This document shows, one piece after another, positions 4,009 through 58,347 of a DNA stretch of 64,000 nucleotides. Under the pieces are notes generated by a model that did no database searches, was not told the origin of the DNA, and saw nothing but the letters and a program-made list of their open reading frames with translations. Within the stretch, counting starts at the first letter, position 1, and every line of letters starts with the position of its first letter. A program made the position numbers and the translations under genes. Source of the stretch: a virus; the IMG/VR virus record IMGVR_UViG_3300038829_000269, positions 64,522-128,521 of that record; one strand, 5' to 3'.

Positions 4009-4021
4009 TGGTGCGTCCTCC

Positions 4022-21342: not shown

Positions 21343-21348
21343 CTGAAC

Positions 21349-42638: not shown

Positions 42639-42848
42639 TTAAATCGACTTGCGTTTGTTACCTAATCCGATCATGTCCACGTTCAGACGCTCGACGACCT
42701 TGAGCGCAGCGTCGATCACCCGCTTGCGTCGGCGCTCGACGCCCCGGAGCCTGATCCCGTTCTCGTCCAGGCCCTTGAGCAGGAGTTCGGCCGTGGTCGC
42801 GCGCAGCAGGCGGGCGAGCGTCCTATACTGCGGTCGGCGCGTGGCCAT
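42639..42848 (-). CDS. Basic hypothetical protein, 69 aa
   Basis: MATRRPQYR..., TGATG coupling. Confidence 0.5.
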   Translation of the reverse strand: MATRRPQYRTLARLLRATTAELLLKGLDENGIRLRGVERRRKRVIDAALKVVERLNVDMIGLGNKRKSI

Positions 42849-43963
42849 CAGCGCTTCCTCACCTTGGGCGCTCGGTTCCCTGCCAGTCGGCGTCCGAGTT
42901 TGGTCGAGCGCCATACTGGGTCTTGGCCGCCGAGCACGCGCTCCACCAACCCGTGCGACTCCATGGCCACGAGCAGGCGGGTGGCCGCGTCCGCGTCGCA
43001 ATCCAGAGCGTCGGTCACCATCTTGATTCTGAAATCGTAGCGCCGAGCGGCGCGCAGAACCTTCCTCGCGCGCATCACCCGCAGGCCGCCGATCACTGCC
43101 GGGAACTCGGGAACCACTCTCCGGCTGGTGTATTCCTTGGCCCGTGCCTGCTTAGCCTCGGCACCAAGTGGCTGGACGCTGGCCACGGTCGCCAAGTTCA
43201 TGTAGAGGTCGAGCGGGTTCACGTCGCTCAGCCCGCTCATCTGCCCGTCGTTCACCTCGATCACGATCCATCTGCCGTCGGCGGTCTCCGCCACGTCCAC
43301 AACAAAGAACTGAGCGTGGTCCGCGATCCGGTCTGCGGCCTGAAGCGCGAGCCTGATCCCGTCCTCGGTGATCGGCGCGCGTTCCTCGGTCGCGGTCCAG
43401 TAGAACCCGTAAGCCAGGTTCGTGCGCCCCCAGAAGAAGAAGCGCCACTCGTTGGCGAACGGCAGGCCGTTGAGTCCAACCTCAAGCACTCGGAGCGGGA
43501 CGTGCTCGCGGTAGATCAGGCCCTGGGGACCGATCAAGCCGTCCTGGCCCAGTTCGCTCGTGATCCGCAGCGCGTCGTCCCAGGTCGGGGCGAACATCTT
43601 CTGCTTCCACTCAAACTTCCGGCTGTTGGTCGCGCCCTTGACCACGAGCGGCACGCCGCGCTTGACCGAGGCGAGCGTGCGCCATGACCTGGGCGTCATG
43701 TCGACCAGAGTCTCATACCAGTGGAAGCCAGCGATCCACTGGTGCTGGCGCAGTGTGTTGGCGAGCCTTGAGCCCTGAACCGCGAGGTCGTGCTCCAACT
43801 CCATATAGTAGGGGAGCACGGAGTAGCGCCCGATCACCAGCTTCTTGCTGAGGCCCACGCGGCTCTCGACCACGGGCATGTGCCTGCGCGCCACCTCGAT
43901 CTCGGACTGCACCTCTCCGTTGAACTCGGGCCTGAACAGAATCACTGGCTCTAGTCGTTCCAT
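42848..43963 (-). CDS. ATP-grasp protein (DUF4343/R2K-like) with C-terminal wHTH-like extension
   Basis: VVKGATNSRK, NEWRFF, FFVVDVAETADGRWIVIEVNDGQMSG; extension ATRLLVAMESHGLVERV...WRSTKLG. Confidence 0.75.
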   Translation of the reverse strand: MERLEPVILFRPEFNGEVQSEIEVARRHMPVVESRVGLSKKLVIGRYSVLPYYMELEHDLAVQGSRLANTLRQHQWIAGFHWYETLVDMTPRSWRTLASVKRGVPLVVKGATNSRKFEWKQKMFAPTWDDALRITSELGQDGLIGPQGLIYREHVPLRVLEVGLNGLPFANEWRFFFWGRTNLAYGFYWTATEERAPITEDGIRLALQAADRIADHAQFFVVDVAETADGRWIVIEVNDGQMSGLSDVNPLDLYMNLATVASVQPLGAEAKQARAKEYTSRRVVPEFPAVIGGLRVMRARKVLRAARRYDFRIKMVTDALDCDADAATRLLVAMESHGLVERVLGGQDPVWRSTKLGRRLAGNRAPKVRKR

Positions 43964-44286
43964 ATCTCCCTCAACGTCGGCTCTTCTCTCACGATCTTCA
44001 CTGACCTGGACGCGCGCCGGGTCCGGGCATAGGCCTCGGCCCACCGGCCTCCCATGTCGAACATCTCCTGCGGGCCGGGTGCGTGGTTCATCCGGTCGAT
44101 CGCGGCGCGCAGCGTCTCGTAGCTCAGGACCTGGGCGTCAGCCGCGTCGCTCACGTTGCTCATGCCGCTGGCGAAATCTTGGGCTATCCTTGCCGCGTTC
44201 TCATCGCGCAGAGCCTCCGCGAACTCGCGCTCGCGGGCGTCCTGGTTCATTCCCTGGTAGATAATGGCGCGCTGGCTTATTTCCAT
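43951..44286 (-). CDS. Hypothetical protein with C-terminal EPTLREIWND tag
   Basis: 111 aa; TGATG coupling. Confidence 0.65.
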   Translation of the reverse strand: MEISQRAIIYQGMNQDAREREFAEALRDENAARIAQDFASGMSNVSDAADAQVLSYETLRAAIDRMNHAPGPQEMFDMGGRWAEAYARTRRASRSVKIVREEPTLREIWND

Positions 44287-44780
44287 CAGTCGGCCCACAC
44301 TTCGCGCAGCGTCGGCTCGGGCTCGTCAGGCGCCCGCATCTCGATGAGTTCGTTGACCCGGCCCTCGATCTCCATCTCGATCCAGGCCTGGAGTTCGAGC
44401 GGCGTGCCCCGCTCCATCGGGTCGTTGAGCACCGCGTTCATGCTCGCGCTGGCGTCGGCCACCAGGAGAAAGAACTCCTCGTCCGTCACCCGGTAGCGGC
44501 GCACGATCCTGCTCACGGCGAGCATCACATCCAGGCGCACGAAGTCCTCGGGCCTGCGCCCACGGTTCAGGGCGAGCAGCGCGTCCGCGTGCTGCGGGTT
44601 GTAGGGCTCGACGTGCCCCCACGAGGAGATGTCGTCGCCCACCCGGAGCACGATCGGCTCGCGGCCCGGGACCGCGTTCGCGGGCACCGTGACCGTCCGG
44701 TCGCGCGGGTCGATGATCCACCCTATCGGATGAAACGGGTTGGGCACCGGGCCCGAGAACCATAGGTCGGTGATCATCAT
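44286..44780 (-). CDS. Hypothetical protein with C-terminal EPTLREVWAD tag
   Basis: 164 aa; ATGA coupling. Confidence 0.65.
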   Translation of the reverse strand: MMITDLWFSGPVPNPFHPIGWIIDPRDRTVTVPANAVPGREPIVLRVGDDISSWGHVEPYNPQHADALLALNRGRRPEDFVRLDVMLAVSRIVRRYRVTDEEFFLLVADASASMNAVLNDPMERGTPLELQAWIEMEIEGRVNELIEMRAPDEPEPTLREVWAD

Positions 44781-44938
44781 GGGCGCCGATCAAGCTGCCT
44801 TCTGATCTCATCGCCGGTCCGCTTCAGCCACGAGGCGCGCAGCCTGAGCAGCGCAGTCGGATCGCGCTCGATCAGCGCGCGCACCATCTCCTCCTTCTCC
44901 AGGCGCTCCATCTCGCGGAACGTGATTAGTCTGCCCAT
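44777..44938 (-). CDS. Hypothetical protein, 53 aa
   Basis: MGRLITFREMERLEK...; start lies inside the upstream tag DNA. Confidence 0.5.
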   Translation of the reverse strand: MGRLITFREMERLEKEEMVRALIERDPTALLRLRASWLKRTGDEIRRQLDRRP

Positions 44939-45840
44939 ACTTCCATCAGTGTGGGCTCGCGCGTCCACTGCGCCACGGGCTCGGCCTCCGCCGCGCGCGC
45001 CGGGACCACCATGATCTGGCGCGCGCAGAGGCCGCAGCGCACCACCATGTTCCCGCGCTCGGCGGCCGAGCGGGCGCCTGCGTCGCACTGGGGGCAGGGG
45101 CGCGCGTCCTCGAAGCTCGACCTGATCCTCCAGACCCAGGGCTCACCCTCGTGGTCCAGGCCACGGCCGTAGAACCAGGTCGTCCAGTCCCCGCGATCGT
45201 AGGGCACGCTCGTGTCCACCGGCTGGTTGGTCACCGGGTTCCATGTGTAGCTCGCGCCGTTGCCCAACGAGATCACGCTGTCGTCGCTGCTCGCGCTGGT
45301 CAGAGTGAAGCTCGTGTTCATACCGTCGGCGCTGTCCAGGCGCGAGTCGATGTAATAGGAGGCGCCGTCCACGCTCACGCGCCGAGCCGGGTCCTGGCGC
45401 TGCCGCTCACGAGCCTGCTCCATCTCCGTGATCCGGCGCATCGAGTCGTTCCACGCGGGCACCGCGTCGCCCATCAGGAGGGCGGCGTCCGGCACCGGGC
45501 GCACGCGCTCCACCTCGTCGTCCGTCCCCGCGATGAACCCCTGGACATTGTGCACGTCGAGTTCGCCGCGCTGGTTCATCAGACGCAGGTGCTCGGACTC
45601 CACGATGAGCAGCGTGTTCATTGGTGGCAGGTTATGATCCGAACCGTGCGCCGTGGCCTCGACCTCGACCTCGACCGCTGAGTGGCCCGCGACGATCGCG
45701 TAGGGGAGGACCGTGCGGTAGGCGAGCAGCCCGCCGGGGCGCTGGCAGACGAGCACCGTCCCCGCGTCGATCAAGAACATGGCGGTTGGCGGCGTGACCG
45801 GGGCCGAGAGCCTGAACGTGACGAAGCCGCGCGCTCTCAT
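44926..45840 (-). CDS. Protein with baseplate-J-like N-terminal segment and C-terminal EPTLMEVWAD tag
   Basis: MRARGFVTF..LIDAGTVL..YRT..IVAGHSAVEVEVEATAHGSDHNLP; CPQC..CGLC Zn ribbon. Confidence 0.6.
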   Translation of the reverse strand: MRARGFVTFRLSAPVTPPTAMFLIDAGTVLVCQRPGGLLAYRTVLPYAIVAGHSAVEVEVEATAHGSDHNLPPMNTLLIVESEHLRLMNQRGELDVHNVQGFIAGTDDEVERVRPVPDAALLMGDAVPAWNDSMRRITEMEQARERQRQDPARRVSVDGASYYIDSRLDSADGMNTSFTLTSASSDDSVISLGNGASYTWNPVTNQPVDTSVPYDRGDWTTWFYGRGLDHEGEPWVWRIRSSFEDARPCPQCDAGARSAAERGNMVVRCGLCARQIMVVPARAAEAEPVAQWTREPTLMEVWAD

Positions 45841-46037
45841 CCGTGGATCACGGACATGGTCGTCCGCTCCTCCAGGCTCAGGCCGGTCGCGATCTCGCCG
45901 CAAGCGCAGCGCTTGTTCGTGCAGCGCGGCGCCACGATCAGCGGGGCGCTGAGCGAGAACGGGCCGGGGAGCGGCGGGCTCCATACCGGGAGGATGAACC
46001 GGTGCGCGTGCGGGAGCGCTTCGACTGGCAAGCTCAT
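45837..46037 (-). CDS. Small Cys-containing hypothetical protein, 66 aa
   Basis: ATGA coupling both ends; CTNKRCACG. Confidence 0.45.
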   Translation of the reverse strand: MSLPVEALPHAHRFILPVWSPPLPGPFSLSAPLIVAPRCTNKRCACGEIATGLSLEERTTMSVIHG

Positions 46038-46360
46038 GGGTAGGAGAACCCTCCGTCGCAGTTGCGCTCCATGACCCAGCGCGGCGGCATCTCGCCCACG
46101 AACCGGGGCTCGGACGTTCGCCACCAGTAGCCCGCGTAGAGCCAGTGCGCGAACGTCGGCATCCCGTGGGCCGAGAGCCAGATCGCGGCGCGCTGTCGCC
46201 TGCCCACGGGCCTGAACACCTGCGGCTGCCGGATGTAGTCGACCGCCCGGCGCCGGAGCGCGGCGTCGTCCTCATGCGCCAGGCGCGTGATCCCCATGTT
46301 CGCGACCAGGGCGTCAAGCGCCTGGCCCTCGGCACGCGGGTAGTTGTCAGGGCGTTCCAT
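46034..46360 (-). CDS. Protein with baseplate-J-like N-terminal motif
   Basis: AEGQALDALVANMGITRLAHEDDAALRRR. Confidence 0.55.
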   Translation of the reverse strand: MERPDNYPRAEGQALDALVANMGITRLAHEDDAALRRRAVDYIRQPQVFRPVGRRQRAAIWLSAHGMPTFAHWLYAGYWWRTSEPRFVGEMPPRWVMERNCDGGFSYP

Positions 46361-47427
46361 CAGTCTCTCCAAAGCTCCATGAGCGTGGGGTCCGCCTCAC
46401 GCTGCGGCATCTTGTCCATCCCCTCCACGATCTGCACGTTGAACCACCGGATCATGGGCTCGGTCAACCCCACGTTGTCCATGATCCGCTGCGCGCGCTC
46501 CGAGCGCTGGTCCACGATGTAGTATTCGGCGATCGCCCGGGCCAGGATCGCGTTGTCCCCGGCCGTGAGCCCCGCGAGCCTGCGCTCTACCTCGGGCGTC
46601 GGCTGCTCGACCATGTGCATGGCTGGCGCCAGGCGCTCGACCCCACCCTCCTCCATGATCCGGTGCACTTCCTCGGCGGCCTGCGCCGGGGTCAGGTTGC
46701 GCTCGCGCATCAGGTCGCGGCCCCGGCGCAGCATCATGTCCTGGATCACGCGCTGCTCGTATTGGGGCAGGGTCTCGCCCGCGCGCTGCCCGTAGTCCTG
46801 GCCGTCCACGTTCGCGATCGCGCGTAGTGGCACCCCCGCCTCGATCTGGCGCGCGTTGATCAGCGCGGCGGCCAGGCGCCTTACCTCGTCCGGCGGGATC
46901 GCGACAGTCCCAGACTCTGGTAGGGCCACCACCAGGTCGCGGATCGGGATCGCCATCTGCTGGCCGTCGATCACGTTCTGCTCCAGGTAGGCGCGGAGCA
47001 CCGGCAGGTCACCGTCCGACGTAATCTCGCGCTGGCCCCGGCGCGTGACGATCGTGACGTGCGTGGGCCGCCCCTCTGGCTCCACCGCGATGTCCATCGC
47101 CAGGCCCTGGGCGTGCTGCGACCTGGGCCTGATCGCGTCGGGGCGAGCGTGCCGCCCGGTCGCGACCATGATCAGCCGATGGCGCTCTCCCCGATCGTTC
47201 TGGATGTGGAGCGTTGGCTCCACGTCCGACACCTCGATCAGCGCGAGTTCCTGGAGCATGAGCCGCACCCGACCGGTGCTGAACTCCACCTCCTGATAGT
47301 AGGTCGACTCCAGGCCCGGATCGTCCTGGATGCGGACGTAGTGGTCGAGCGCTCGTTGCAGGACGTGGATGTCCTGGTCGATATTGCACTCGATGTTGAA
47401 CCCGCTGGTGAAGCGCAGGATGTGCAT
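46360..47427 (-). CDS. Hypothetical protein with C-terminal DPTLMELWRD tag, 355 aa
   Basis: Start MHILRF by TGATG coupling. Confidence 0.65.
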   Translation of the reverse strand: MHILRFTSGFNIECNIDQDIHVLQRALDHYVRIQDDPGLESTYYQEVEFSTGRVRLMLQELALIEVSDVEPTLHIQNDRGERHRLIMVATGRHARPDAIRPRSQHAQGLAMDIAVEPEGRPTHVTIVTRRGQREITSDGDLPVLRAYLEQNVIDGQQMAIPIRDLVVALPESGTVAIPPDEVRRLAAALINARQIEAGVPLRAIANVDGQDYGQRAGETLPQYEQRVIQDMMLRRGRDLMRERNLTPAQAAEEVHRIMEEGGVERLAPAMHMVEQPTPEVERRLAGLTAGDNAILARAIAEYYIVDQRSERAQRIMDNVGLTEPMIRWFNVQIVEGMDKMPQREADPTLMELWRD

Positions 47428-48038
47428 CAGTCGGCCCAGACCTCGGCCAGGTTCGGCTCTTCGCGCGCCGGGCGCCGTGGCCGCTCCTGATTTCGTGGCT
47501 CGTAGCCCGCGCTCTCGTCGATCACGCACTGGCGTCCGAGCACCTGCTGAATCTGGTTCCCATTCTGGTCCACGCTCAGTCGCCAGTTGATCGTCGTCGC
47601 GAAGTCCGAGCCCGTGGCCATGTCGAAAGACGAGTAGTCGGTCGACGTATAGGTGGTGGGAAGCGCGCTTGGCGTGCTGGAGAACAGCGTCCGCATCTGG
47701 TTTGGCGTCATCCCAAGAGGTTCATCGGCACCGCCCGTCGCGGGCATCGACTGGCCGACGAGCACGCGGCCCTGGTGCCAGAGGTCTTCGAGCCAGTCAG
47801 GGAGCAGCGGGCGGTCGATCACGTTCGCCGGGATGTTCCCGACCTGCCCGTTGATCTCGCACGCGCACTCGATGTTCGCGAGTTCGCCTGGGAGCAGGAT
47901 GTGCTCGCGGATCGTGCTGAACATCGGGTGGCCAGCAGAGCGATGAGCGCCGAACCTGGAGCCTGCCTCGATCACGAGAGGCGCGGCCCCGTCCGCATTG
48001 TAGTCGTAGAACACGCTGATCGAGACTTGAGCACGCAT
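47427..48038 (-). CDS. Protein with baseplate-J-like segment and C-terminal EPNLAEVWAD tag
   Basis: LVIEAGSRF..FSTIRE..IECACEINGQVGNIPANVI; TAATG coupling. Confidence 0.6.
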   Translation of the reverse strand: MRAQVSISVFYDYNADGAAPLVIEAGSRFGAHRSAGHPMFSTIREHILLPGELANIECACEINGQVGNIPANVIDRPLLPDWLEDLWHQGRVLVGQSMPATGGADEPLGMTPNQMRTLFSSTPSALPTTYTSTDYSSFDMATGSDFATTINWRLSVDQNGNQIQQVLGRQCVIDESAGYEPRNQERPRRPAREEPNLAEVWAD

Positions 48039-48271
48039 TAGTCGGCCCACACCTCGCGCAGTGTCGGCTCCTCGCGCGCGACGCGCTGAGGACGCTTCGG
48101 CTCGTCCATCAGGTCGTCGATGGTCACGCCGCTGAGGTCCACGTTCGTCGGAATGTCATTGGCGCTAACGCTCTCGAATCTGATCTCTGAGTTGTTTTGG
48201 AAGTTGTTCTGCCAGCGCACGCTCTCAGTGAACCGCTGATAGATTCCTCCCCAGTCCATCATCGTGCTCAT
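48038..48271 (-). CDS. Hypothetical protein with C-terminal EPTLREVWAD tag
   Basis: 77 aa. Confidence 0.6.
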   Translation of the reverse strand: MSTMMDWGGIYQRFTESVRWQNNFQNNSEIRFESVSANDIPTNVDLSGVTIDDLMDEPKRPQRVAREEPTLREVWAD

Positions 48272-48274
48272 GGC

Positions 48275-48622
48275 CTAGAACTTGAAGCGAGCGCGGCTCA
48301 CGGGCACCGATCCGATCTCCGCCGTGATCTCACAGATGCCGTGCTCCTGCTCCTCGTCCAGGTCCAGGAGCGTGGAGAACGTGACCTGGGGGATCGCCTT
48401 GATCCCCTTGTGGTCGGGGCTCAGCATGGCGAGCGCCAGGCTCGCGCCGATCCCCTCCGTGATCTCGCCCACGAAGATGCGCGGCATCTTGTCGCCCCGA
48501 CACCAGGCACGGACCACGTCGCCCGCCATCTCGCTGATCTGCTCAGCGCCCTGCCTGAAGATGACCAGGGCCCTGGCCTCCAGCTTCTCGCGCGTCGCCT
48601 TCTGCTCTTCGGTCTCGATCAT
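48275..48622 (-). CDS. Hypothetical protein
   Basis: 115 aa, coupled. Confidence 0.6.
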   Translation of the reverse strand: MIETEEQKATREKLEARALVIFRQGAEQISEMAGDVVRAWCRGDKMPRIFVGEITEGIGASLALAMLSPDHKGIKAIPQVTFSTLLDLDEEQEHGICEITAEIGSVPVSRARFKF

Positions 48623-48810
48623 CGTTTCTTCCTCAGGACCTCGGCCACGAGCCTGACCTCGTGATAGCGATACTCCCGCGTCAGACTCTTGAGCCCGCGC
48701 AGCTTGCGGCAGACCGACCCGTCCTTGACCGAGACCCCGACCCAGCGCCCGGCCATGTCGAAGGCGAGCCCCGTGCCCATCTCGATGCGCTTCTCGATCT
48801 TCCTGGCCAT
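48619..48810 (-). CDS. Small basic hypothetical protein
   Basis: 63 aa, coupled. Confidence 0.55.
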   Translation of the reverse strand: MARKIEKRIEMGTGLAFDMAGRWVGVSVKDGSVCRKLRGLKSLTREYRYHEVRLVAEVLRKKR

Positions 48811-48813
48811 GGC

Positions 48814-49302
48814 CTAGACCTTGTTCGCGAGCCTGACCACCGGCGTCTCGGTCAGGTCCAGCTTGTCGGCTTCGAGCTTGATCACGTTGAGCTTGGTGCT
48901 CAACTCGGGGTCAAGCGGCTTCTCCATGATCCCGTCGAGCGTCGCGGTCGGGACCATGGGCCAGATCACGTCGAGCAGCCCGCCGATCGACACCGTGGTG
49001 ATCAGCGCGCCCGCCTGCCGGATGAGGCGGCAGCCCGCAGCGTAGAGCGCGTCCCGCTCCTTAGCCTTCTTCTCCAGCGCCTTGATCCGCGCCGGGACCT
49101 CGCCGCACTTGGTGCCGGGCCAGCCGAGCGCGGCCTTCACGAAGTTGCCGCCCTGTGCGGCCTGCGCGCAGTCGATCTTCGTCACGCCGTAGGTCACGAC
49201 GTGCTCGCGGCCGTCGTGGTCGAACGCCGTGATGATCACCTGCTTCAGGCCCTGGGCCTTGGCCAAGTCCTTAGCCACTTGGATCGGGATTCGTTTGGGC
49301 AT
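48814..49302 (-). CDS. Hypothetical protein, 162 aa
   Basis: Start MPKRIPIQVAK by TGATG coupling. Confidence 0.6.
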   Translation of the reverse strand: MPKRIPIQVAKDLAKAQGLKQVIITAFDHDGREHVVTYGVTKIDCAQAAQGGNFVKAALGWPGTKCGEVPARIKALEKKAKERDALYAAGCRLIRQAGALITTVSIGGLLDVIWPMVPTATLDGIMEKPLDPELSTKLNVIKLEADKLDLTETPVVRLANKV

Positions 49303-49523
49303 CAGCGCTTCCTCCTGGCGCTCAGAGCCATGCGCGCCATGTTCACCTGCTCCTGCGCCTCCTTCTCCGTGACTCCCTTGGGCTCGTAGATCAGCATGGT
49401 CGCCGGGTATCCGCGACCGCGCTTGTGTCTCTTCATGCTCTGGAGGTTCTGGATCACGTTGGCCAGGTCCTTCTCGTTCTTGAACGCGAGGGTCATGCCC
49501 TTGCTGCTGATCAGGACCATCAT
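49302..49523 (-). CDS. Hypothetical protein
   Basis: 73 aa, coupled. Confidence 0.55.
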   Translation of the reverse strand: MMVLISSKGMTLAFKNEKDLANVIQNLQSMKRHKRGRGYPATMLIYEPKGVTEKEAQEQVNMARMALSARRKR

Positions 49524-50242
49524 GCGGCCACCGCCTCAAGCCGCTCCAGTTCGCGCTGCATCTCGATGAACCCTTCGCCGAGCGGCGAGTTGAACGCCTC
49601 CCAGGTCAGGGGCATCGCGCGCTGCATGAACTTGGCCAGCGCGTGCGAGAACTGCCGGGTCTCCCACTGCGCGTGGTTCTCCGACCTCAGCGAGATGAAG
49701 TGCATCAGCGCACGGGCGTTCACCGTCCAATACCACTCGGTGTAGAGGTTCGTGGGCAGGACCATTCGCGCCATCTCGCGGGCCACGCCGCAGTTGAGCA
49801 TCTGGCGGTAGAGGAACATGTCGCTCTCGTTCGCCACGAGCAGGGCCTTGGACAGGTCCTCGTGCATCAGGTCCGGGGTCGGGACCGAGCCCTGTTTGTT
49901 CTTCGTGTCCTGCTTGCGCCACTCCTTCGGGATGTAGAACTCCTCGGGCGCCTCGCGGTAGCGGAAGCTCGTCTCGTTGTAGCTCGACATGCGGTGCCTG
50001 ATCCACTGGCGCGCGACGAAGATCGGGAGCTTGACGTGGAACTGGAACACGGCGTGCTCGAACGGGCTGCCGTGGTTGTTCTTCAGCAGGTAGGCGATCA
50101 ACTTGCGATCGTCCTCCGGCGTCTTGGGCTCGGACTTGAAGCTGACGCGCGCGGCGCGCACCACGCTCAGGTCGCCGCCCATCTTGTCCTCCAGCCGGAC
50201 GAAGCCCTTGTCCAGCACCCCGATCAGATTCGTGTCGTTCAT
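49520..50242 (-). CDS. thyX: Flavin-dependent thymidylate synthase
   Basis: VRAARVS, HGSPFEH, ARQWIRHRMSSYNETSFRY (RHR-x7-S motif), EMARMVLP, FISLRSENHAQWE. Confidence 0.95.
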   Translation of the reverse strand: MNDTNLIGVLDKGFVRLEDKMGGDLSVVRAARVSFKSEPKTPEDDRKLIAYLLKNNHGSPFEHAVFQFHVKLPIFVARQWIRHRMSSYNETSFRYREAPEEFYIPKEWRKQDTKNKQGSVPTPDLMHEDLSKALLVANESDMFLYRQMLNCGVAREMARMVLPTNLYTEWYWTVNARALMHFISLRSENHAQWETRQFSHALAKFMQRAMPLTWEAFNSPLGEGFIEMQRELERLEAVAA

Positions 50243-50932: not shown

Positions 50933-51234
50933 GAGAGCGTGCCGACCTCCTTCGAGTATTCGAGGAACTTCTCGATCTTCACCTTCTTCGCGTCGATGTC
51001 CGGGCGCAGGGCCGCGACCAACTCGTCCATCGACGTGCCGGGCAGCGCCAGTTCGATGGCGCCGCACAGGTCCGCAACCTCGCCCAGGAGACGCGCGCGG
51101 TTGTCCTTCTCCTTGCCGGGCTCCTGACCGGGCTGGACCTCGGTCAGGCCGAAGCGCACGACCTTCGACGCGCGCTGCGCGACCTCGCCGCCCTCCTCGC
51201 CCACGATCGTGAACAGATGCTCTTGTCGGTTCAT
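50929..51234 (-). CDS. MazG-like all-alpha NTP pyrophosphohydrolase
   Basis: EEGGEVAQRASKVVRFG...LLGEVADL. Confidence 0.65.
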   Translation of the reverse strand: MNRQEHLFTIVGEEGGEVAQRASKVVRFGLTEVQPGQEPGKEKDNRARLLGEVADLCGAIELALPGTSMDELVAALRPDIDAKKVKIEKFLEYSKEVGTLS

Positions 51235-51602
51235 GTGAATAGCTCCAGTTCCCTCTTGAATGTGAAAAACTTTCCCGCGTGCACCGCGTCCACCACGTCC
51301 TGGCCCGAGTAGCCGTTCCACTTGATGGCGACGCGGAACGCGCTGACCCCGACGAGTCGGCCGCCGGTCCCCTTCTTGCAGAACGGCTGGTTGTCGACCA
51401 GGGACCAGACGCAGGTGCCAACGTCCTTGATGTGCACGTCGCCGCACCGGCAGCGGTGGACGCCCACGCGCGCGATCGTGTTGAACCCGGTGCGCTCACT
51501 GATCTCCAGCGGCTTGATCAGGTCCTTGATCTTGGCCCCGCCGACGTATCCCGAGATCAAGCCCATGCGCTGGGCGTCCGTCAAAAGTGGTCCTCGCGGC
51601 AT
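51231..51602 (-). CDS. HTH plus Zn-finger protein
   Basis: IKDLIKPLEISERTGFNTIAR; CRC..C..C. Confidence 0.5.
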   Translation of the reverse strand: MPRGPLLTDAQRMGLISGYVGGAKIKDLIKPLEISERTGFNTIARVGVHRCRCGDVHIKDVGTCVWSLVDNQPFCKKGTGGRLVGVSAFRVAIKWNGYSGQDVVDAVHAGKFFTFKRELELFT

Positions 51603-51603
51603 C

Positions 51604-52002
51604 CTATCTCCTCTTCTTCTTCCAACCCCACTGGGCTTGGCGCTTCCACGGCTGAATCGGCTTGGGCGGCGGCTCGCTCGCCTTCTTCACGGCCTCCAGG
51701 TGCTCGGCGAACGCTCTGAGGTCAGGGACTGGAGGCGGGGTGATCGCCGGGGCCCGGTCGTCGATCGTCACGACGCCCCCGTGCGCGTGGATCGCCGCGA
51801 GCAGCGCCATGGTCATGAGGTGATTGTCCCGGCTGTGCGTGACCATCACGAACTTGGGCTCGCGCGGTGCCGTCCCGTTCTCGCTCCCGTCCGAGTAGCA
51901 CTGGCCGGTCGAGGTCGGGCCGCCGCACGCCGGGCACGAGCAGCCGCAAGCGGTGCACGGGGCGGTGGCCATCGGGTCGGTGCCGTGCTTGCACTCAGCC
52001 AC
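51604..52002 (-). CDS. Cys-rich hypothetical protein
   Basis: 132 aa; CTACGCSCPACG. Confidence 0.55.
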   Translation of the reverse strand: MAECKHGTDPMATAPCTACGCSCPACGGPTSTGQCYSDGSENGTAPREPKFVMVTHSRDNHLMTMALLAAIHAHGGVVTIDDRAPAITPPPVPDLRAFAEHLEAVKKASEPPPKPIQPWKRQAQWGWKKKRR

Positions 52003-52348
52003 GCCTCTTCCCCAGGTGCATGATCTGGCGCTTCTGGTCTTCGATCACGTCGAAAAGGAACTGACCCTCGGCGTTGCTCAGCCCGATCGTGGCCTTCAAC
52101 TCGGGCAGCAGCTTCAAGCGGCGCAGGTCTTGGAGGTGCGCGTGCGCCGCGCTCAGTGAGCGGAGGCCGAACTCGGCCTGGACCTCGCGCACGGTCGGAA
52201 CGCGGTTGTCCTCCAGCATCCGGGTCCGGCAGAACATGAGGACCGCCGCCTTCTTCCGGCCCAGGCCCTCGATCTCCGGCATCTCGACGCCGATTCTAAC
52301 GCGCGCGCGCAGCGAGTCGAGCAGCGCCTGCTTCTCTGGTGTGATCAT
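51995..52348 (-). CDS. LexA-type DNA-binding (wHTH) domain protein without peptidase domain
   Basis: PTVREVQAEFGLRSLSAAHAHLQDLRRLKLL matches the LexA N-terminal pattern. Confidence 0.65.
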   Translation of the reverse strand: MITPEKQALLDSLRARVRIGVEMPEIEGLGRKKAAVLMFCRTRMLEDNRVPTVREVQAEFGLRSLSAAHAHLQDLRRLKLLPELKATIGLSNAEGQFLFDVIEDQKRQIMHLGKRRG

Positions 52349-52602
52349 TCGGTCCCCGCCATCACCTTGCCGATGATCTCGACGCCTTTCTCGATTCGCT
52401 CCTCTCGCTCGCGGGAGCGAAGCTCTTCGGACATGGCGGCGACCGGGCCGCCGAGGATGTTGGCCACCGTGCCCATGATCTCGCGCAGGCGATCGACTTC
52501 CTTGACCATGCACTTGTTGCACATGAACAGCGCGTGCTCCTCGCACGTCCGGCTGCTCGGCCTCAGGAAGGACTTCGGAATCGGGTAATCGGCGATAGCC
52601 AT
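52345..52602 (-). CDS. Hypothetical protein
   Basis: 85 aa; CEEH..CNKC. Confidence 0.55.
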   Translation of the reverse strand: MAIADYPIPKSFLRPSSRTCEEHALFMCNKCMVKEVDRLREIMGTVANILGGPVAAMSEELRSREREERIEKGVEIIGKVMAGTE

Positions 52603-52605
52603 GTT

Positions 52606-52640
52606 ATGTAGGAGTATTATACATCTAGTAACGCTATTAT
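52606..52640 (-). promoter_or_regulatory. Possible promoter (-10 TATAAT)
   Basis: Perfect TATAAT at 52621-52616 in an AT-rich gap; no good -35. Confidence 0.35.
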
Positions 52641-52966
52641 GCCAGTCCTCGCCTCTTTTCGATCTTGTTCAACATGCGGTCGAGGAGCGTATAGCTCACG
52701 GCCAGAGACTCACTCGCTACCGCAATCTTGTCGCGCCCGACCTTGACGCAGATCGGCGGCTGCTTGGTGCTCATCACGCCGATGACGAGCGGGCGTCCGA
52801 ACAGGAGCTTGATCTTCTCGATCCAGTCCGGCTCCCAGCATGAGTAGATCGCGCCGTCCTCTCCCCGCACGCCCTCCAGGTCCTGGATCGTGCCGACAAC
52901 CGTGTCCTCGCGCCCGAGGAACTTGACCGCGCCCTTGGCCTTGACAGGAGCGGGCTTCAAGCGCAC
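52637..52966 (-). CDS. Hypothetical protein
   Basis: 109 aa; YSCWEPDWIEKIKLLFG. Confidence 0.55.
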   Translation of the reverse strand: MRLKPAPVKAKGAVKFLGREDTVVGTIQDLEGVRGEDGAIYSCWEPDWIEKIKLLFGRPLVIGVMSTKQPPICVKVGRDKIAVASESLAVSYTLLDRMLNKIEKRRGLA

Positions 52967-53418
52967 CTCCGGTCCACGGACATCGGCTGCCCGCGAGGCA
53001 CGAGCGCGATGTCCAGCCCCACCTCTCCGCTCTGCGCCAGGCTCGGCTCCTCGCGCATCATGTCCATCAGGTCGTCGAACGAGATGTGCAGGATCGTGGG
53101 CGGGACCTTGCGCTTCATCATGTAGTCGATCACCATCTGGCGCACGCGCCGCGCCTTGGTCTCGGGCTCGGCGCGCGTGCCTTTCGGACCAGGCCGAAAG
53201 TCCTGGGTGATGACCGTGCCCACGCGCCGCTCCGTATAGGTGCCGCCGCAGTCGGTCTTAAACTGTCCGATGTTGTCCAGCGGCTCGACGAGGCGCACCA
53301 CGCGGTGGCTGCCCCCGATGTAGACCTCGGTCCCGAACCCGTAGTCGCCGTCCCCAGGCCACTTGATCCCGAGCTTGCGGATCGCGCGCTTTAACTGCTC
53401 GTCTCTGAGCTTATCCAC
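52957..53418 (-). CDS. Hypothetical protein
   Basis: 153 aa, coupled. Confidence 0.55.
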   Translation of the reverse strand: MDKLRDEQLKRAIRKLGIKWPGDGDYGFGTEVYIGGSHRVVRLVEPLDNIGQFKTDCGGTYTERRVGTVITQDFRPGPKGTRAEPETKARRVRQMVIDYMMKRKVPPTILHISFDDLMDMMREEPSLAQSGEVGLDIALVPRGQPMSVDRRCA

Positions 53419-54043
53419 GGGCTCCCTCCGCCGAGACGCAGACCGCGCACATCGGCTTCTTCCCGTCCCCGATGTGATCGAGGCTCGTGACCACCGGTCT
53501 GCCGCAGGCGCAGGTCATCTCCACGTTCTGGTTTGGAGGCACGATGGTCCTCAGCGGCTCATGCTGCTGCGCCTGGCCCTTGGGCGGCGAGCAGGGGAAC
53601 GCCGTGCTCATCAGCGTGTGGGCCACGATCCCGGACAGGCGCAGGCCGTCGACCGTGTAGGTGGCCTCGACCCAGAACGCTCCGCCGTGGCTGATCCCCG
53701 TGCACTGCCCGCAGCGGCATCCCTGGATCAGGTCGAAGACCGCGCACTCGACATGGTTCCGCATGTCGGCGAGCGTCAGTTCCCGGAGCCAGTCGGCGCC
53801 CGCGAACTCGATGCTCACCTCCTTGGCGAAGCCATGGACGAAGTCGTTGACCTTCGGCGCGTTCTCCGCGAGCACGCGCCGCGTCTCGGCGATGAGCCCC
53901 GTCAGATGCTCGACCTTGTGCACGTTCTGCTGATGACCGCGCGAGCGCCACCAGAACCAGGCGTAGCAGATGCCGAACCCGATGGCCAAGAACATGATGA
54001 TGAACAGCGTGAGCCCGATCGGGCCGCCTTGGATGTAGACCAT
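53411..54043 (-). CDS. Membrane-anchored Cys-rich protein
   Basis: N-terminal hydrophobic LTLFIIMFLAIGFGICYAWFWW; CRCGQC, CACG..CAVC. Confidence 0.6.
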   Translation of the reverse strand: MVYIQGGPIGLTLFIIMFLAIGFGICYAWFWWRSRGHQQNVHKVEHLTGLIAETRRVLAENAPKVNDFVHGFAKEVSIEFAGADWLRELTLADMRNHVECAVFDLIQGCRCGQCTGISHGGAFWVEATYTVDGLRLSGIVAHTLMSTAFPCSPPKGQAQQHEPLRTIVPPNQNVEMTCACGRPVVTSLDHIGDGKKPMCAVCVSAEGARG

Positions 54044-54047
54044 AGGA

Positions 54048-54431
54048 CTAGACCGGGGCCGTCTCCGGCGCGGGCTGCGGCGCCGTCGGGTTCACGCCCT
54101 TGACCAGGGTGTAGCCCCTGGTCCCCGTCTTGATCAGGCGCTCCAGACTGATCGAGACCTTGATCGGCGGCTTGCCGTCCTTGGCCTTGGTCCCCTCGAT
54201 GTCGACCGAGCGCGTGCCGCTCGCCTTGCCCGCCTTGATCTCCTTCACCGCGAAGAACTGGTTGGCCACGCGCCAGTCTCCGTCCTTGAACACCTGCCCG
54301 ACCACCACCTCTTCCTTGTTCATGAGCCACTTGCCTCTCGGGTGCATCTGTATTTGCGCCAAAGCCGGGACGTTCTGCGTCCGCAGGTTCCTTATCAGAC
54401 GACGGAAGCTCTGACTCTTGGTCATCGTCAT
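54048..54431 (-). CDS. Basic hypothetical protein
   Basis: Start MTMTKSQ with GGAG RBS. Confidence 0.55.
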   Translation of the reverse strand: MTMTKSQSFRRLIRNLRTQNVPALAQIQMHPRGKWLMNKEEVVVGQVFKDGDWRVANQFFAVKEIKAGKASGTRSVDIEGTKAKDGKPPIKVSISLERLIKTGTRGYTLVKGVNPTAPQPAPETAPV

Positions 54432-54730
54432 TTCCGTGTCTCCCCGAACGTGTTGTTGATCAGCTTCAACGCCTGATCGCGCGCCTCGGGCTGCCGGGCC
54501 GTGGCCCAGGTCCTGAGCATTGCGTGCTTCGAGCGACCTGCCCACTCGCGCACCGCGTTGTTGCGAAGGTAGACGAGCGCCGGGTTGTTCCACTGGAGCA
54601 CGTCAGCCAGCAGCCCTGGCACCACGCGCATCCTCCGTCCCATGGGCGCGCGCGAGACCTTGAGGCTGATCCCCACGTCGCCCGCGTCCTCGGACTTGCC
54701 GACGAGTTCCAGGATGTCGACGATGCTCAC
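54428..54730 (-). CDS. Hypothetical protein, 100 aa
   Basis: GTG start overlapping upstream TGA. Confidence 0.5.
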   Translation of the reverse strand: MSIVDILELVGKSEDAGDVGISLKVSRAPMGRRMRVVPGLLADVLQWNNPALVYLRNNAVREWAGRSKHAMLRTWATARQPEARDQALKLINNTFGETRK

Positions 54731-55236
54731 TCGGCCCTCCAGTAGACGCGGACCGGGACGTTCCAGCGCCGGTAGCCGAGGTCTTCCCACTTCCAGGTGC
54801 TGACCACGCCGTTCGTGAACGGCTCGCGGTTCACAAGGCGGAAGAACTGACCGTCCTGGTGCCCGATGATCAGCACCGAGTGCAGGCCGATCTTGTCGTC
54901 CCAGATCGGGATCGAGATCACGCCGCCCTTGTCCAGGAGCTTGGTCGCCAACTCCTTGCTCATCTCCAGCGCCCGATACTTGTCGACGCGGATTCGCGGC
55001 CACTGCGGGTGGACGGTGAACCGCTCTTCGATCTCGTCCAGCCGCTCCTCGATCGCGGAGCCGTGCTCGGCGCCCGCCTGGCGCACCAGGAGAGCGAAGT
55101 CCTCGCTGTCCTGGTCCCAAGGCTGGTCGATGGCCCCGAAGTGGAGCAGGGCGTTGCCCAAGCTGATCAGGGCGCAGACGTGCGGTCTCTTCTGCCCCAT
55201 GTAGTTGATGGTCTCGGTATTCATGCGGTAATCCAT
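54727..55236 (-). CDS. Papain-fold (C39-like) peptidase candidate
   Basis: GQKRPHVCALISLGNAL...HSVLIIG...RLVN (Q, C, H, N order). Confidence 0.5.
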   Translation of the reverse strand: MDYRMNTETINYMGQKRPHVCALISLGNALLHFGAIDQPWDQDSEDFALLVRQAGAEHGSAIEERLDEIEERFTVHPQWPRIRVDKYRALEMSKELATKLLDKGGVISIPIWDDKIGLHSVLIIGHQDGQFFRLVNREPFTNGVVSTWKWEDLGYRRWNVPVRVYWRAE

Positions 55237-55748
55237 GGCTGCGGCTTGAGCTTGTATTTGAGGTAGAGCGGATGCCCCGGCTGCCCGGTCTTCGTCACGG
55301 TGATCGCGTGGAGCAGCGCCAGCGACCCGTTCTTCCTGAAGATGTCCTTCACCTGCTCGTCGCGGCCCAGGTAGCCGCCGTGCGATCCCCAGCCCGCGAC
55401 GATCATCCCGCCGCCGCAGTCCCACGCCGCGCGCAGGATCGCCAGATCGTTGTGCTCGCCCACCACGTCGATCCCCGCCTCGGCCGAGTCCTTCATGTCC
55501 TCGGGGTCCGTCGCCCGGAACGCGAAGATGTTGACCACGATCAGGCCGTCGTATCCGTATTCTCGCGCGCGGCGCTCCATGCGCTCGACCGTCGGATCGT
55601 TCAAGTTCTCGTCGGCCGTGCTCGGGTTGAGCCCGATGAACACTAGGTAGCGCTTCCCCGGACCCCAGACGCGCCACAGCCAATAGCGGTGGACGCGCCC
55701 GGGGCCGAAGATGGCTCCCTTCTCGCCGACGATCTTGAACTCGATCAA
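55221..55748 (-). CDS. DUF1643 family protein
   Basis: HRYWLWRVW..FIGLNPSTAD..DPTV..VNIFAFRATDP..IVAGWG..PGHPLY. Confidence 0.85.
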   Translation of the reverse strand: MIEFKIVGEKGAIFGPGRVHRYWLWRVWGPGKRYLVFIGLNPSTADENLNDPTVERMERRAREYGYDGLIVVNIFAFRATDPEDMKDSAEAGIDVVGEHNDLAILRAAWDCGGGMIVAGWGSHGGYLGRDEQVKDIFRKNGSLALLHAITVTKTGQPGHPLYLKYKLKPQPWITA

Positions 55749-56065
55749 GGCTTGATCACCATGCCGCCGAGGTTGAGCGCCACGCTGATCCCCACCTTGC
55801 TCTCGTCCGGGTAGAGGTTGACGGTCACGGTGAACACGTCGTCCGATCGGATGGCCCCGGTGCAGCCCTCGCCACCGGCGAAGAACTCGTCGATCGCCTC
55901 GAAGATCAGCGGCTGCAACTGGGTGTCGAACTTCTTGTCCAGGCCGAGGCAGGGGAGCGTGCCCGCCGCCTCGACCTTGATCTTCTGCGTCAGGTCCTGG
56001 ATCGCGCCCGCGTGCTTGATCAGGAACTCGGCCTTCGTCATGTCGGAGGTCATGGTCGCGGTCAT
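55745..56065 (-). CDS. Hypothetical protein
   Basis: 106 aa, coupled. Confidence 0.55.
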   Translation of the reverse strand: MTATMTSDMTKAEFLIKHAGAIQDLTQKIKVEAAGTLPCLGLDKKFDTQLQPLIFEAIDEFFAGGEGCTGAIRSDDVFTVTVNLYPDESKVGISVALNLGGMVIKP

Positions 56066-56295
56066 CGCGCGCCACCGGTGACGAGCGGCGCGGCCTCGGC
56101 GTCGGGCTGATCCGGCGTGATCTGCGTGCCCTGCGAGAGAGCCGCCGGGTAATGCGGGTGCCGGTGCTTCAAGATGTCGGCGTCCTTGCGCTGCTTGTCG
56201 CGAAGCGCCAGGCCCGCGCGCCGGGCGCTGGCCTGAGCCTGCTTGCGCTTCGCCTGCCGCTTGCGTCTCTTCTGCTGGAGTTTGTTCTGGTTCAT
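56062..56295 (-). CDS. Small basic hypothetical protein
   Basis: 77 aa; KRRKRQAKRK. Confidence 0.5.
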   Translation of the reverse strand: MNQNKLQQKRRKRQAKRKQAQASARRAGLALRDKQRKDADILKHRHPHYPAALSQGTQITPDQPDAEAAPLVTGGAR

Positions 56296-56298
56296 GTT

Positions 56299-56736
56299 CT
56301 AGGTGTGGCCGATGGGGCCGCCCTCCTTCTCGTTCAAGAGCGCCCCGACCGCGCGGTCCGCCGGGTGCTGCTCGACCTTCTCCTCTTCCTTCTTCGGCGC
56401 CTTCTTCTCGTCGGTCGTCCCAAGCAGAAGGTAGATGTCGATGTGCGGGTCCTTCGTCAGGTCGATGAAGTCGAGCGACCCGTGGACCTCGACGCGCAGG
56501 CCGCTGTCGTTCACCGCGACGAACAGCTTGCCGCTGTTTCCGTAGTGCTCCTCCAGCGCCTGCGTGATCATGCCCCACAGCTTGTCGCTCACCTGCTTCT
56601 GGCTGAGGAACCCGTCGAAGAACTTGGTCGCTCGGTCGGCCACGCCCCAGACCAGGACGTTGACCTGCTCGAAGTTGCGGGACACGAAGTCCTTGGCCTC
56701 GTCCTTCGCCTGCTCCTGCCTCATGCCCATGACCAC
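56299..56736 (-). CDS. Hypothetical protein
   Basis: 145 aa ORF. Confidence 0.55.
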   Translation of the reverse strand: MVMGMRQEQAKDEAKDFVSRNFEQVNVLVWGVADRATKFFDGFLSQKQVSDKLWGMITQALEEHYGNSGKLFVAVNDSGLRVEVHGSLDFIDLTKDPHIDIYLLLGTTDEKKAPKKEEEKVEQHPADRAVGALLNEKEGGPIGHT

Positions 56737-56737
56737 G

Positions 56738-56977
56738 CTACCGGCTCTCCGACGTGCTCTTCACGTCGATGAGCGTGGGGATCAGCGTGCCCTTCAGGAT
56801 CGGCAAGATGATGAACAAGCCGACGCAGTGCCAGAACGGAATGTGCAGGTAGACCTGCGGCAGCCAGTAGAAATAGATCGCGGCGAGCCTGTTCCAGATG
56901 AACCAGAACGGGATGCTGAGGCTGATGCTGACGGTCAGGCTGATCACCCAGCCGATGAACGGGAGCTTGTTGATCAT
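56738..56977 (-). CDS. Small membrane protein
   Basis: 79 aa, almost entirely hydrophobic/aromatic. Confidence 0.6.
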   Translation of the reverse strand: MINKLPFIGWVISLTVSISLSIPFWFIWNRLAAIYFYWLPQVYLHIPFWHCVGLFIILPILKGTLIPTLIDVKSTSESR

Positions 56978-57249
56978 CGGAGCTTGGCCTCCACGAGCTT
57001 GACCCAGTCGCCCAGCGTCTTCGCGTTCTCGGACTCCTCGTCGCCAATCTGCCGGTCGATCTCTTCCTCGACCCACATGCAGAACTCGACCTTGTCCAAT
57101 TCGTCCATCCCGATCTTGGTGTCGAGCACCGCGTCGATCGGAAGCTCGTCGACCTCCTCCTGCGTCAGACCGATGGTCTCGCGCAGGCCGCGCTTCACCA
57201 GGTCCAGCGTCTCTTCCTTCTTCGGCGTCTCCGTCTTGGCCTCAGCCAT
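56974..57249 (-). CDS. Acyl-carrier-protein homolog lacking the phosphopantetheine Ser
   Basis: IGMDELDKVEFCMWVEEEIDRQIGDEESENAKTLGDWVKLV aligns to ACP GxDSLDxVELxMxxEEEFxxxIxDEExE..TVGD; Ser position is GAA (Glu) at 57100-57102. Confidence 0.75.
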   Translation of the reverse strand: MAEAKTETPKKEETLDLVKRGLRETIGLTQEEVDELPIDAVLDTKIGMDELDKVEFCMWVEEEIDRQIGDEESENAKTLGDWVKLVEAKLR

Positions 57250-57850
57250 TCCATCCTCCGCGCTTCTTGTGCTCCCAGCCCGTGGCCGGGGAAATCATGT
57301 CGACGGACACCCACCGCTCTTCGCCCGCCTTGTCGCCGGACTGCCGCTCGATCTTGATCGACTGGCGATCGGCCGCGATCTCGGTGATCCACCAGGCGCT
57401 GTCCGAGTCAGGGCCCTGCGTGGTCTCCCACAGGTCGCCGATCCGCAGGCAGACCGGGTGGCTGTTGAACACCTCGATCGTCTCGTAAAGCTCCTTCTGC
57501 TTCCACTCGGGGACCGGCGCCAGGCCCATGACGACCCAGCCCTCGGTCACCACGTTCTCGACTTCGGCCCGGTTCGTCGACGGCTGCGCGCCGCCCGTGA
57601 AGATGTAGGTCACCTGCTTGAACATCTCCCGGCCGTAGTTGTCGCCGTCCGGGTGGTAGTCGATGAGCAGCAGGAAGTCGCCGATCCTGAAGTCACGGTC
57701 GTTGAACCGGACCTCGAACGTCTTGAACCCGGCGAGCACCGCGTCGTAGAAATGGGTGAGCGTCTTGAGCCTGTGCATCTTGTGGCTGCGCCCCGGCAGC
57801 GGCATGATCGCGAGCGGCGGGAGCATCGTCTGCGTGTGCATGTGGTGCAT
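57242..57850 (-). CDS. DUF3850/ASCH-like domain protein with extra C-terminal domain
   Basis: HRLKTLTHFYDAVLAGFKTFEVRFNDRDFRIGDFLLL. Confidence 0.75.
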   Translation of the reverse strand: MHHMHTQTMLPPLAIMPLPGRSHKMHRLKTLTHFYDAVLAGFKTFEVRFNDRDFRIGDFLLLIDYHPDGDNYGREMFKQVTYIFTGGAQPSTNRAEVENVVTEGWVVMGLAPVPEWKQKELYETIEVFNSHPVCLRIGDLWETTQGPDSDSAWWITEIAADRQSIKIERQSGDKAGEERWVSVDMISPATGWEHKKRGGWNG

Positions 57851-58347
57851 CAGTCTCTCCAGATTTCCATCAGATTCGGCTCGCGGTCGGGCAGGTGCTT
57901 CTCCGCGATCGGCGCCACCTCGTTGATCAACTCGCGCAGCGCGTCGAGGCCGCGCTCGTTCATCTGCCCAGTGGTCTCGTTCGTGCGCCTGAACGCCATG
58001 TCCCTAATCCCCTCTGCTTCGAGCATCGTGACCGGGCCGCTCTGGTTCAGGTGGATGCGCGCGATCGCGTAGTTGTCGACCTGGTCCGTGTGCTCGTTCA
58101 TCACCTGCATCCTGGGCGTGCGCCGCTCATCCTCGGTTGCCGCACGCTGGCTGGTGATCACGCCCAGCACGTTCACCCGGTTGAACTCCGAGGCCTGCTC
58201 CGACATCGTCCGAACGTCGAGCGTGTAGTAGACGCCGTTCCAGACCACGGAGGCGCGCGCCATGTGCGACACCCGGAAGGGTGCAGCCGTGTCGCTGCCG
58301 ACCGTGAAGCTGTTGTAGGCGCCGACGCGCTCTGACATTCTAGGCAC
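57850..58347 (-). CDS. Hypothetical protein with C-terminal EPNLMEIWRD tag
   Basis: 165 aa. Confidence 0.6.
   Translation of the reverse strand: MPRMSERVGAYNSFTVGSDTAAPFRVSHMARASVVWNGVYYTLDVRTMSEQASEFNRVNVLGVITSQRAATEDERRTPRMQVMNEHTDQVDNYAIARIHLNQSGPVTMLEAEGIRDMAFRRTNETTGQMNERGLDALRELINEVAPIAEKHLPDREPNLMEIWRD

Follow-up and report, generated by a model that had tools for sequence, protein, structure and literature searches.

A shared C-terminal peptide marks a family of lysine-depleted proteins encoded beside an ATP-grasp ligase in uncultured phages

We analyzed a 64,000-nucleotide stretch of phage DNA (the window; positions 64,522 to 128,521 of IMG/VR record IMGVR_UViG_3300038829_000269, a groundwater metagenome contig), numbered here from its first letter. 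Transcription in the window runs from the minus strand throughout, and seven of its genes encode proteins that end in the same peptide, [E/D]-P-[T/N]-L-x-E-[V/I/L]-W-x-D, followed by the stop codon. This tail is conserved as a peptide, the proteins that carry it have lost nearly all of their lysine, and six of the seven genes lie in a block whose downstream neighbor, gI, encodes an R2K-clade ATP-grasp ligase. The tail is probably a docking handle that these proteins share and that a single partner reads. Our best explanation of the whole, to which we give slightly less than even confidence, is that this reader directs its chemistry at amines and is most likely the ATP-grasp enzyme.

All seven tails reported in a preliminary description of this DNA are present on the minus strand. 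They belong to the genes below, in which the lower coordinate marks the stop and residues are counted back from the C-terminus (-1).

gA, 48038..48271, minus strand: 77 aa; tail EPTLREVWAD; one Lys, at -19
gB, 47427..48038, minus strand: 203 aa; tail EPNLAEVWAD; no Lys; N-terminal Baseplate_J barrel domain
gC, 46360..47427, minus strand: 355 aa; tail DPTLMELWRD, kept in orthologues of 35% identity; one Lys, at -17
gE, 44926..45840, minus strand: 304 aa; tail EPTLMEVWAD; no Lys; Baseplate_J barrel domain and a Cys4 ribbon
gG, 44286..44780, minus strand: 164 aa; tail EPTLREVWAD; no Lys
gH, 43951..44286, minus strand: 111 aa; tail EPTLREIWND; one Lys, at -15
gJ, 57850..58338, minus strand: 162 aa (165 from a GTG start); tail EPNLMEIWRD; one Lys, at -16; 10 kb upstream of the block

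In the window, a degenerate DNA pattern built on the tail matched these seven sites and no others (0.00 matches expected from 100 shuffles), and a looser peptide pattern applied to six frames of the 139,276-bp genome returned exactly the same seven, each with a stop directly after it. A chance origin of this short, strictly terminal motif is thereby excluded. When the carrier bodies were compared all against all by BLAST, only orthologue pairs matched, at 26–50% identity, and these pairs retain the tail. The preliminary description had found no other similarity among the carriers; this holds for most of them, with the exceptions that gB, gE, and their orthologues carry a baseplate protein J barrel domain (Pfam Baseplate_J) and that all carriers are poor in lysine. 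Its proposal that the tail defines a family of otherwise unlike client proteins is supported by the persistence of the tail in these diverged orthologues and in seven lineages.

These lineages form one small clade of uncultured phages. Among 5.8 billion proteins, gC has only five non-identical relatives, and those of 35% identity end in EPTVMEAWRD. A distant relative of the window genome, on a 54-kb Joint Genome Institute (JGI) contig, has eight tagged genes in a homologous block and three elsewhere, lineage L012 has two, and four further syntenic relatives, fetched with the neighboring ATP-grasp as the query, have 7, 9, 6, and 6, giving a total of 48 tagged proteins. The consensus is (R)-E-P-[T/S/N]-[L/T]-[R/M]-E-[V/I/A/L]-W-[A/R/N/S]-D, in which Trp -3 and Asp -1 never vary and Glu -5 hardly does. 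Searches for the tail found real ones in this clade but none in IMG/VR, where a strict DNA pattern gave 0 matches and a looser one a single chance match; IMG/VR also held no relatives of gC. An Atlas search with gC and gJ produced no usable match. A set of one genome from each of 185,579 prokaryote species contained no real tail, only six chance matches in non-coding frames or unrelated open reading frames (ORFs), and a metagenome scan found real tails solely in contigs of this clade. By blastn, the block had no match in cultured phages. We did not find the tail sequence in the literature, and a pentapeptide search returned only noise. An identical 68-residue open frame ending in LEPVVPEIWVD occurs in two metagenome contigs and a Thermomicrobiaceae metagenome-assembled genome (L016, L021, and L034); it appears to be a chance pattern match unrelated to the phage tag.

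The variation among tails is codon-periodic. In a codon information analysis of 20 tails from three lineages, third codon positions carry 0.2–0.5 bits vs 1.4–2.0 bits at positions 1 and 2; values at codon positions 1/2/3 are 1.4/1.7/0.5 for Pro -9, 1.0/1.5/0.2 for Val -4, and 2/2/1 for Glu -5, at which GAG and GAA are in equal use. Arg is encoded by CGC, CGT, CGG, AGG, and AGA, and Leu by CTG, CTC, CTT, and TTG. Because the third position is free and the Arg and Leu codon families are mixed, these data support purifying selection on the peptide, as the preliminary description had argued from synonymous codon use. Conservation at the DNA level only, which it had named as the contrary outcome, does not describe tails whose third positions vary freely.

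An alternative would place the conserved function in the nucleic acid, either as a translational-coupling or start-associated signal for the downstream gene or as a joint for swapping cassettes by recombination. Start-associated phage DNA repeats (SAS) are known from cluster K mycobacteriophages. Genes of the operon are joined by ATGA, TGATG, or TAATG overlaps, and the stop of a tagged gene overlaps the next start as TGATG or TAATG in five of seven cases; in the other two, the ATG of the next gene lies within the Trp codon region. The block also gains and loses genes between lineages, with changes in content at tag boundaries, and gE residues 1–149 and 122–188 match two separate tagged genes of the relative L001. 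These features are outweighed by the free third positions, by the switching of Arg and Leu between codon families, and by the lack of any conserved Shine–Dalgarno sequence at the tail sites (GAGGTG in two, GAAATC, GAGCTT, or GAGATA in others), so that the tail DNA does not show the nucleotide-level conservation upstream of starts expected of a start-associated or intergenic repeat. Moreover, the TGATG overlap is equally common at untagged genes of the operon. The overlaps noticed earlier are thus real, but since untagged genes use the same ones, they are a property of the operon rather than of the tag. We consider a nucleic-acid element very improbable, and the earlier suggestion of a recombination or coupling joint as the main cause is not upheld. 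Genes are indeed shuffled at tag boundaries, but because the DNA identity of the tails is weak, this would be a by-product at most.

The residues preceding the tail may form a flexible linker. They are rich in Pro, Arg, and Glu (Pro plus Arg 22% vs 15%) and poor in hydrophobic residues (25% vs 32%), and in a structural model of gC (overall predicted local distance difference test score, pLDDT, 59) the linker falls below 50, whereas residues 349–354 form a helix of low confidence. Positions -6 and -2 covary: Arg -6 is accompanied by Ala or Asn at -2 in 9 of 9 tails, and a non-Arg residue at -6 (mostly Met) by Arg -2 in 9 of 11 (Fisher p=3e-4). In two orthologue pairs, both residues changed together. 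The rule is looser in the most distant lineages. A two-turn amphipathic helix would fit this i/i+4 dependency, the initial Pro, and the placing of Leu -7, Val -4, and Trp -3 along one side. The strictly terminal position and invariant last residue suggest that the free C-terminal end is read, and the many unrelated bodies suggest one reader with many clients. We therefore picture the tail as a recognition handle in which a Pro/Arg-rich flexible linker would lead into a short amphipathic helix, P-T-L-[R/M]-E-V-W-[A/R]-D, offering the Leu -7/Val -4/Trp -3 face and a free carboxyl end, and presenting otherwise unrelated, lysine-free phage proteins to a common reader.

Shared terminal docking peptides are a known kind of element, and the sequence of this one is new. 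In other systems they connect a whole set of proteins to a single machine; clamp binders, SSB partners, encapsulin cargo, and F-box receptors are examples. The acidic C-terminal tails of T7 gp2.5 and gp4 dock on T7 DNA polymerase, and the C-terminal tip of SSB is likewise a shared docking peptide; as here, a short terminal peptide common to several proteins is read by a common partner. Those tails, however, are acid runs tipped by Phe, occur on two or three replication proteins, and have a known reader, whereas the phage tail is amphipathic, Trp-centered, ends in Asp, and occurs on up to 11 proteins.

The second shared feature of the carriers is a lysine desert. The seven tagged proteins of the window contain 4 Lys in 1379 residues (P about 6e-21), with normal Arg (about 10%), whereas flanking untagged genes encode 3–11% Lys. 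Lys is scarce in the tagged proteins of every lineage, amounting overall to 0.2–0.3% vs 4.6–6.4% in neighbors; in the four further lineages, there are 13 Lys in 4396 residues outside positions -24 to -11, compared with 748 in 16,264 (4.6%) in untagged neighbors. The carriers thus show what defines a lysine desert, namely at least 150 continuous Lys-free residues, or a Lys-free stretch of at least half of the protein, not attributable to base composition. Of all 20 amino acids, Lys (0.04x) and Cys (0.30x; 0.45% vs 1.46%) alone are depleted. Asn (1.9x) and Met (1.4x), whose codons are single steps from those of Lys, are enriched, and Arg only 1.14x; single-base changes, and not substitution by arginine, seem to account for the lost lysines. 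Those that remain are clustered: twelve of 15 are found at -21 to -12, where Lys density is normal (p=5e-13), and in the second set, from the four further lineages, 16 of 29 lie at -24 to -11.

Two general causes of such a desert were examined and rejected. Base-composition bias is excluded by the contrast between reading frames: AAA/AAG accounts for 0.29% of in-frame codons in tagged genes vs 6.38% in neighbors, whereas out of frame the tagged genes have at least as much AAA/AAG as the neighbors, at similar G+C (66.8% vs 64.8%). Cleavage or shortage of tRNA-Lys is an unlikely cause, as the tolerated Lys codons immediately precede the tail, so that a ribosome stalling on them would leave the protein untagged. 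Because the desert is confined to clients and spares residues adjacent to the tail, it suggests a hazard to lysine and cysteine located at the reader, with residues close to the docking site out of reach. The loss of nearly all Lys and most Cys, save about 14 residues beside the handle, is our reason for proposing that the reader's chemistry is directed at amines, by acyl transfer or ligation. The same logic has been proposed for the lysine deserts of ubiquitin-ligase receptors (PMC10665810, PMC10169902). That the desert occurs in the carriers only provides a within-genome control of a kind that the lysine-desert literature lacks, in which G+C bias is the main confounder.

Viral and cellular adaptors offer a parallel. 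Poxvirus ANK/PRANC proteins are viral adaptors with a shared docking box. As in ubiquitin-ligase receptors, whose lysines are removed so that the adaptor stays unmodified (PMC10665810, PMC10169902, PMC13696103), the phage carriers would combine many target-binding bodies with one docking element and may be clients or adaptors that must themselves remain unmodified. The eukaryotic receptors and poxvirus adaptors differ in relying on E1–E2–E3 enzymes and a folded box, whereas the phage element is a 10-residue tail and its carriers are depleted in Cys too. No E1–E2–E3-type machinery is known for the phage described here.

The main rival to a phage-encoded reader is a host reader tied to a lysine-directed system. 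The tail would then dock phage proteins on a host machine such as the actinobacterial Pup ligase and proteasome or a ubiquitin-like defence, and the desert would protect proteins sitting on that machine as inhibitors or hijackers. This reading shares the observation that the desert is confined to tagged proteins, which places the hazard at the reader, and it agrees with the proposal that lysine deserts of Actinobacteria and Mycobacterium phages are adaptations to pupylation (PMC13696103, PMC10665810). The genome has a G+C content of 65%, Pfam models detected no TPR or PDZ reader fold among the proteins of the phage record, and the ATP-grasp family occurs elsewhere without tags and so is not necessarily the reader. 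On the other side, the cultured phage with the closest terminase is Bacillus phage G (31% identity), the absence of the tail from the genomes of the 185,579 prokaryote species gives no sign of mimicry of a host motif, and nothing ties the tail sequence to a known ligand of Pup, Mpa, or E2. A host reader is therefore, in our judgment, an unlikely reading, though one to be taken seriously. If correct, it would make the tail a ready-made probe for the host machine.

Two other roles for a terminal peptide account less well for the desert. As a loading or assembly signal, the tail would fix its carriers inside the procapsid or to the baseplate, to travel in the virion. Encapsulin cargo-loading peptides and the capsid-targeting tail of the HK97 protease are C-terminal loading signals, and encapsulin cargos share the design proposed here, in which unrelated proteins carry some 10 terminal residues behind a linker that is probably flexible in the phage proteins. 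Two carriers have the Baseplate_J barrel, the phage has a true baseplate J gene (75 kb from the block), and the block sits just before the structural genes. Yet the tagged genes belong to a block of nucleotide-metabolism and small genes rather than a structural one, with gJ deep within it, and the tail is on no structural protein. Encapsulin peptides, moreover, have a Gly/Ser/Leu/Ile-rich consensus read by an HK97-fold shell, and their cargos do not avoid lysine; a loading signal leaves the loss of Lys and Cys unexplained. Pfam models for the tail sheath and HK97-type capsid (Phage_capsid) matched nothing in the phage record; the missing capsid match counts only weakly against a loading role. 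We regard this role as improbable. A degron, through which a protease would remove a group of early proteins at a set time, is less probable still. The motif is strictly terminal, like ssrA-type and other C-terminal degrons, but bacterial C-degrons are usually non-polar at the end and this one finishes in Asp. Degradation by Clp, Lon, and FtsH is also lysine-independent, so that the desert would go unexplained unless Pup were involved, which returns to the host reader.

The other feature that bears on mechanism is the gene directly downstream of the tagged block. This neighbor and the lysine desert, both missed by the preliminary description, are the most telling on how the tail might work. 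A gene map refined with frame plots of G+C at third codon positions (GC3) and with overlapping starts gives the order gA, gB, gC, gD, gD2, gE, gF, gG, gH, gI, in which the untagged members are as follows.

gD, 46034..46360, minus strand: 108 aa, within the block; no Lys, although its L001 orthologue has 3; absent from L035
gD2, 45837..46037, minus strand: 66 aa, detected by the GC3 frame plot
gF, 44777..44938, minus strand: 53 aa, with its ATG within the gE tail codons
gI, 42848..43963, minus strand: 371 aa; R2K-clade ATP-grasp ligase (residues 1–260) with a poorly conserved C-terminal extension; 3.8% Lys; start overlapping the gH tail

In each of the six lineages that offer enough sequence, the gI gene comes immediately after the tagged block, and its product is the best-conserved protein of the region, with 82% identity to the distant relative vs 30–50% for tagged proteins. 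It belongs to the R2K clade by its Pfam matches (PF14243 R2K_3, 1.2e-20; PF18299 R2K_2, 2e-13). K109, R115, K116, R152, and E236-V-N238-D-G are invariant in five homologues, and the nucleotide-binding and E-x-N motifs are intact. The subfamily is uncertain, as the motif reads E-V-N-D and not the ExGD of R2K.3 (PMC4431377). Searches of the gI sequence against the Protein Data Bank (PDB) gave nothing significant. An AlphaFold model (pLDDT 69) matched best, among solved structures, LysX/ArgX crystallized with LysW, followed by the peptide macrocyclase PsnB and by RimK, including RimK with ribosomal protein S6. Identity to LysX is 14–18%, and we saw no GSWGR reader motif in gI. Residues 295–362, in the C-terminal extension, give a weak winged-helix match (PF25213, E=1.7e-4); the ATP-grasps of the relatives have shorter, unrelated extensions, and tagless homologues stop at about 260 aa.

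The matched enzymes work on the acidic ends of proteins or peptides. LysW ends in EDWGE, and LysX/ArgX ligates an amine to the carboxylate of its terminal residue (PMC10433800). The LysW/ArgW and phage tails both place an acidic-x-Trp-small-acidic-COOH handle at the very C-terminus (EDWGE in LysW, E-V-W-A-D in the phage), after a Pro/Glu-rich stretch. LysW, however, is one small zinc-ribbon protein with a Glu end, encoded in a lysine or arginine biosynthetic operon, whereas the phage tails sit on 7–11 unrelated proteins of 71–380 aa per phage, end in Asp, and have no pathway genes beside them. The carriers are not LysW-type proteins, which combine a Cys4 zinc-ribbon body and EDWGE with neighboring lysX/Z/Y/J/K, as their bodies are unrelated and their neighbors are phage genes; the likeness is a resemblance, not homology. 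RimK with S6 and tubulin–tyrosine ligase with tubulin offer a second comparison, being ATP-grasps that recognize a protein's acidic C-terminus and lengthen it; no known families are closer to the R2K clade than those of the RimK type (PMC4431377). Each of these enzymes, unlike the proposed phage reader, has a single substrate, with no tag shared by many proteins and no lysine desert.

On this basis, gI is the leading candidate for the reader: an R2K carboxylate–amine ligase that would either grip the tail or activate its terminal Asp carboxylate, much as LysX/ArgX grips the EDWGE tail of LysW and RimK the acidic end of S6. Phage R2K enzymes have been predicted to be protein–peptide ligases of phage–host conflict, with unknown targets (Burroughs, Zhang, and Aravind; PMC4431377). 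Two further readings were set aside. The untagged protein gD, considered as the reader, is absent from L035. A graspetide-like ester ring would call for a conserved Thr/Ser-to-Asp/Glu pair, and Thr -8 is present in only 13 of 20 tails (Asn, Lys, or another residue in the rest, as in EPNLAEVWAD, EPNLMEIWRD, and EPKTMEVWRD), even though PsnB is among the structural matches of gI.

Several observations weigh against gI as the reader. About 1000 homologous ATP-grasps exist, and those of 43–60% identity come from seven unrelated phage backbones and have neither tags nor lysine deserts near them; because such homologues occur in tagless phages, the enzyme needs no tagged clients in general. Its link to the tag rests on six related, syntenic genomes, which amounts to co-inheritance rather than independent co-occurrence. 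Within the clade, the ATP-grasps have C-terminal extensions that show no conservation among themselves and for this reason do not look like a dedicated tag-binding module. The chemistry also fits imperfectly. In the known ATP-grasps that modify proteins, a carboxylate of the protein is activated and a free amino acid is added to it, from which a lysine desert is not obviously predicted, and such chemistry would make lysines near the activated end the most dangerous, yet those are the ones tolerated. Finally, one tagged gene, gJ, is 10 kb from the enzyme gene. Because of the tagless homologues, the single syntenic clade, the unconserved extensions, and a chemistry that does not predict the desert, we treat the assignment of gI as reader as tentative and rather doubtful, even as the leading candidate. 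In two of the tagless phages (L005:1023-2096 and L006:10815-12017), the ATP-grasp is followed by a shared gene of 357–400 aa (33% identity), whose product could be its partner or substrate there.

If gI does read the tail, the phage might encode a tagging system of its own, in which the ligase holds a set of lysine-free adaptors, each delivering its own host target, or joins these proteins through the terminal Asp to lysines of host proteins. This extension seems unlikely to us as it stands. With an ATP-grasp at its core, such a system would be the viral equivalent of pupylation or of the receptor panels of ubiquitin ligases, and R2K phage enzymes would gain their first substrates. The combination of a shared tail, a within-genome Lys/Cys desert, and a fixed ATP-grasp neighbor is undescribed as far as we could find. 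Two questions become testable at the bench with small soluble proteins, namely the elusive targets of phage R2K ATP-grasps (PMC4431377) and whether lysine deserts in phages are adaptive.

A possible variant of the tag occurs upstream of gJ.

Lysine-poor protein, 59059..59649, minus strand: 196 aa; one Lys, at -18; tail [MR]-I-A-W-L-T-COOH

This protein ends in ...DLMIAWLT and its 30%-identity L012 orthologue in ...PTRIAWLT, and it sits where a relative has a normally tagged gene. Its Trp-containing tail may be a second flavor of the handle.

Some carriers have additional elements. The ribbon of gE (Cys-x2-Cys...Cys-x2-Cys) lies near its C-terminus, and a gC homologue, P0003 (429 aa), has a similar Cys ribbon inserted mid-protein. 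The gC orthologue of the most distant lineage (L037:6703-7653) has an N-terminal hydrophobic segment resembling a membrane anchor, which other gC orthologues do not have. Elsewhere in the record, ORF N-termini at its ends (1-5400 and 131900-139000) look by eye like those of a helicase and an SbcD/Mre11 nuclease. The record is labelled a provirus, but its ENA contig measures 170 kb, so it may be part of a phage of about that size and not a prophage. Two different proteins encoded in the window (19663-21348 and 61157-63208, minus strand) match terminase-large-subunit families in PHROGs, and the second of these also resembles FtsK-like ATPases.

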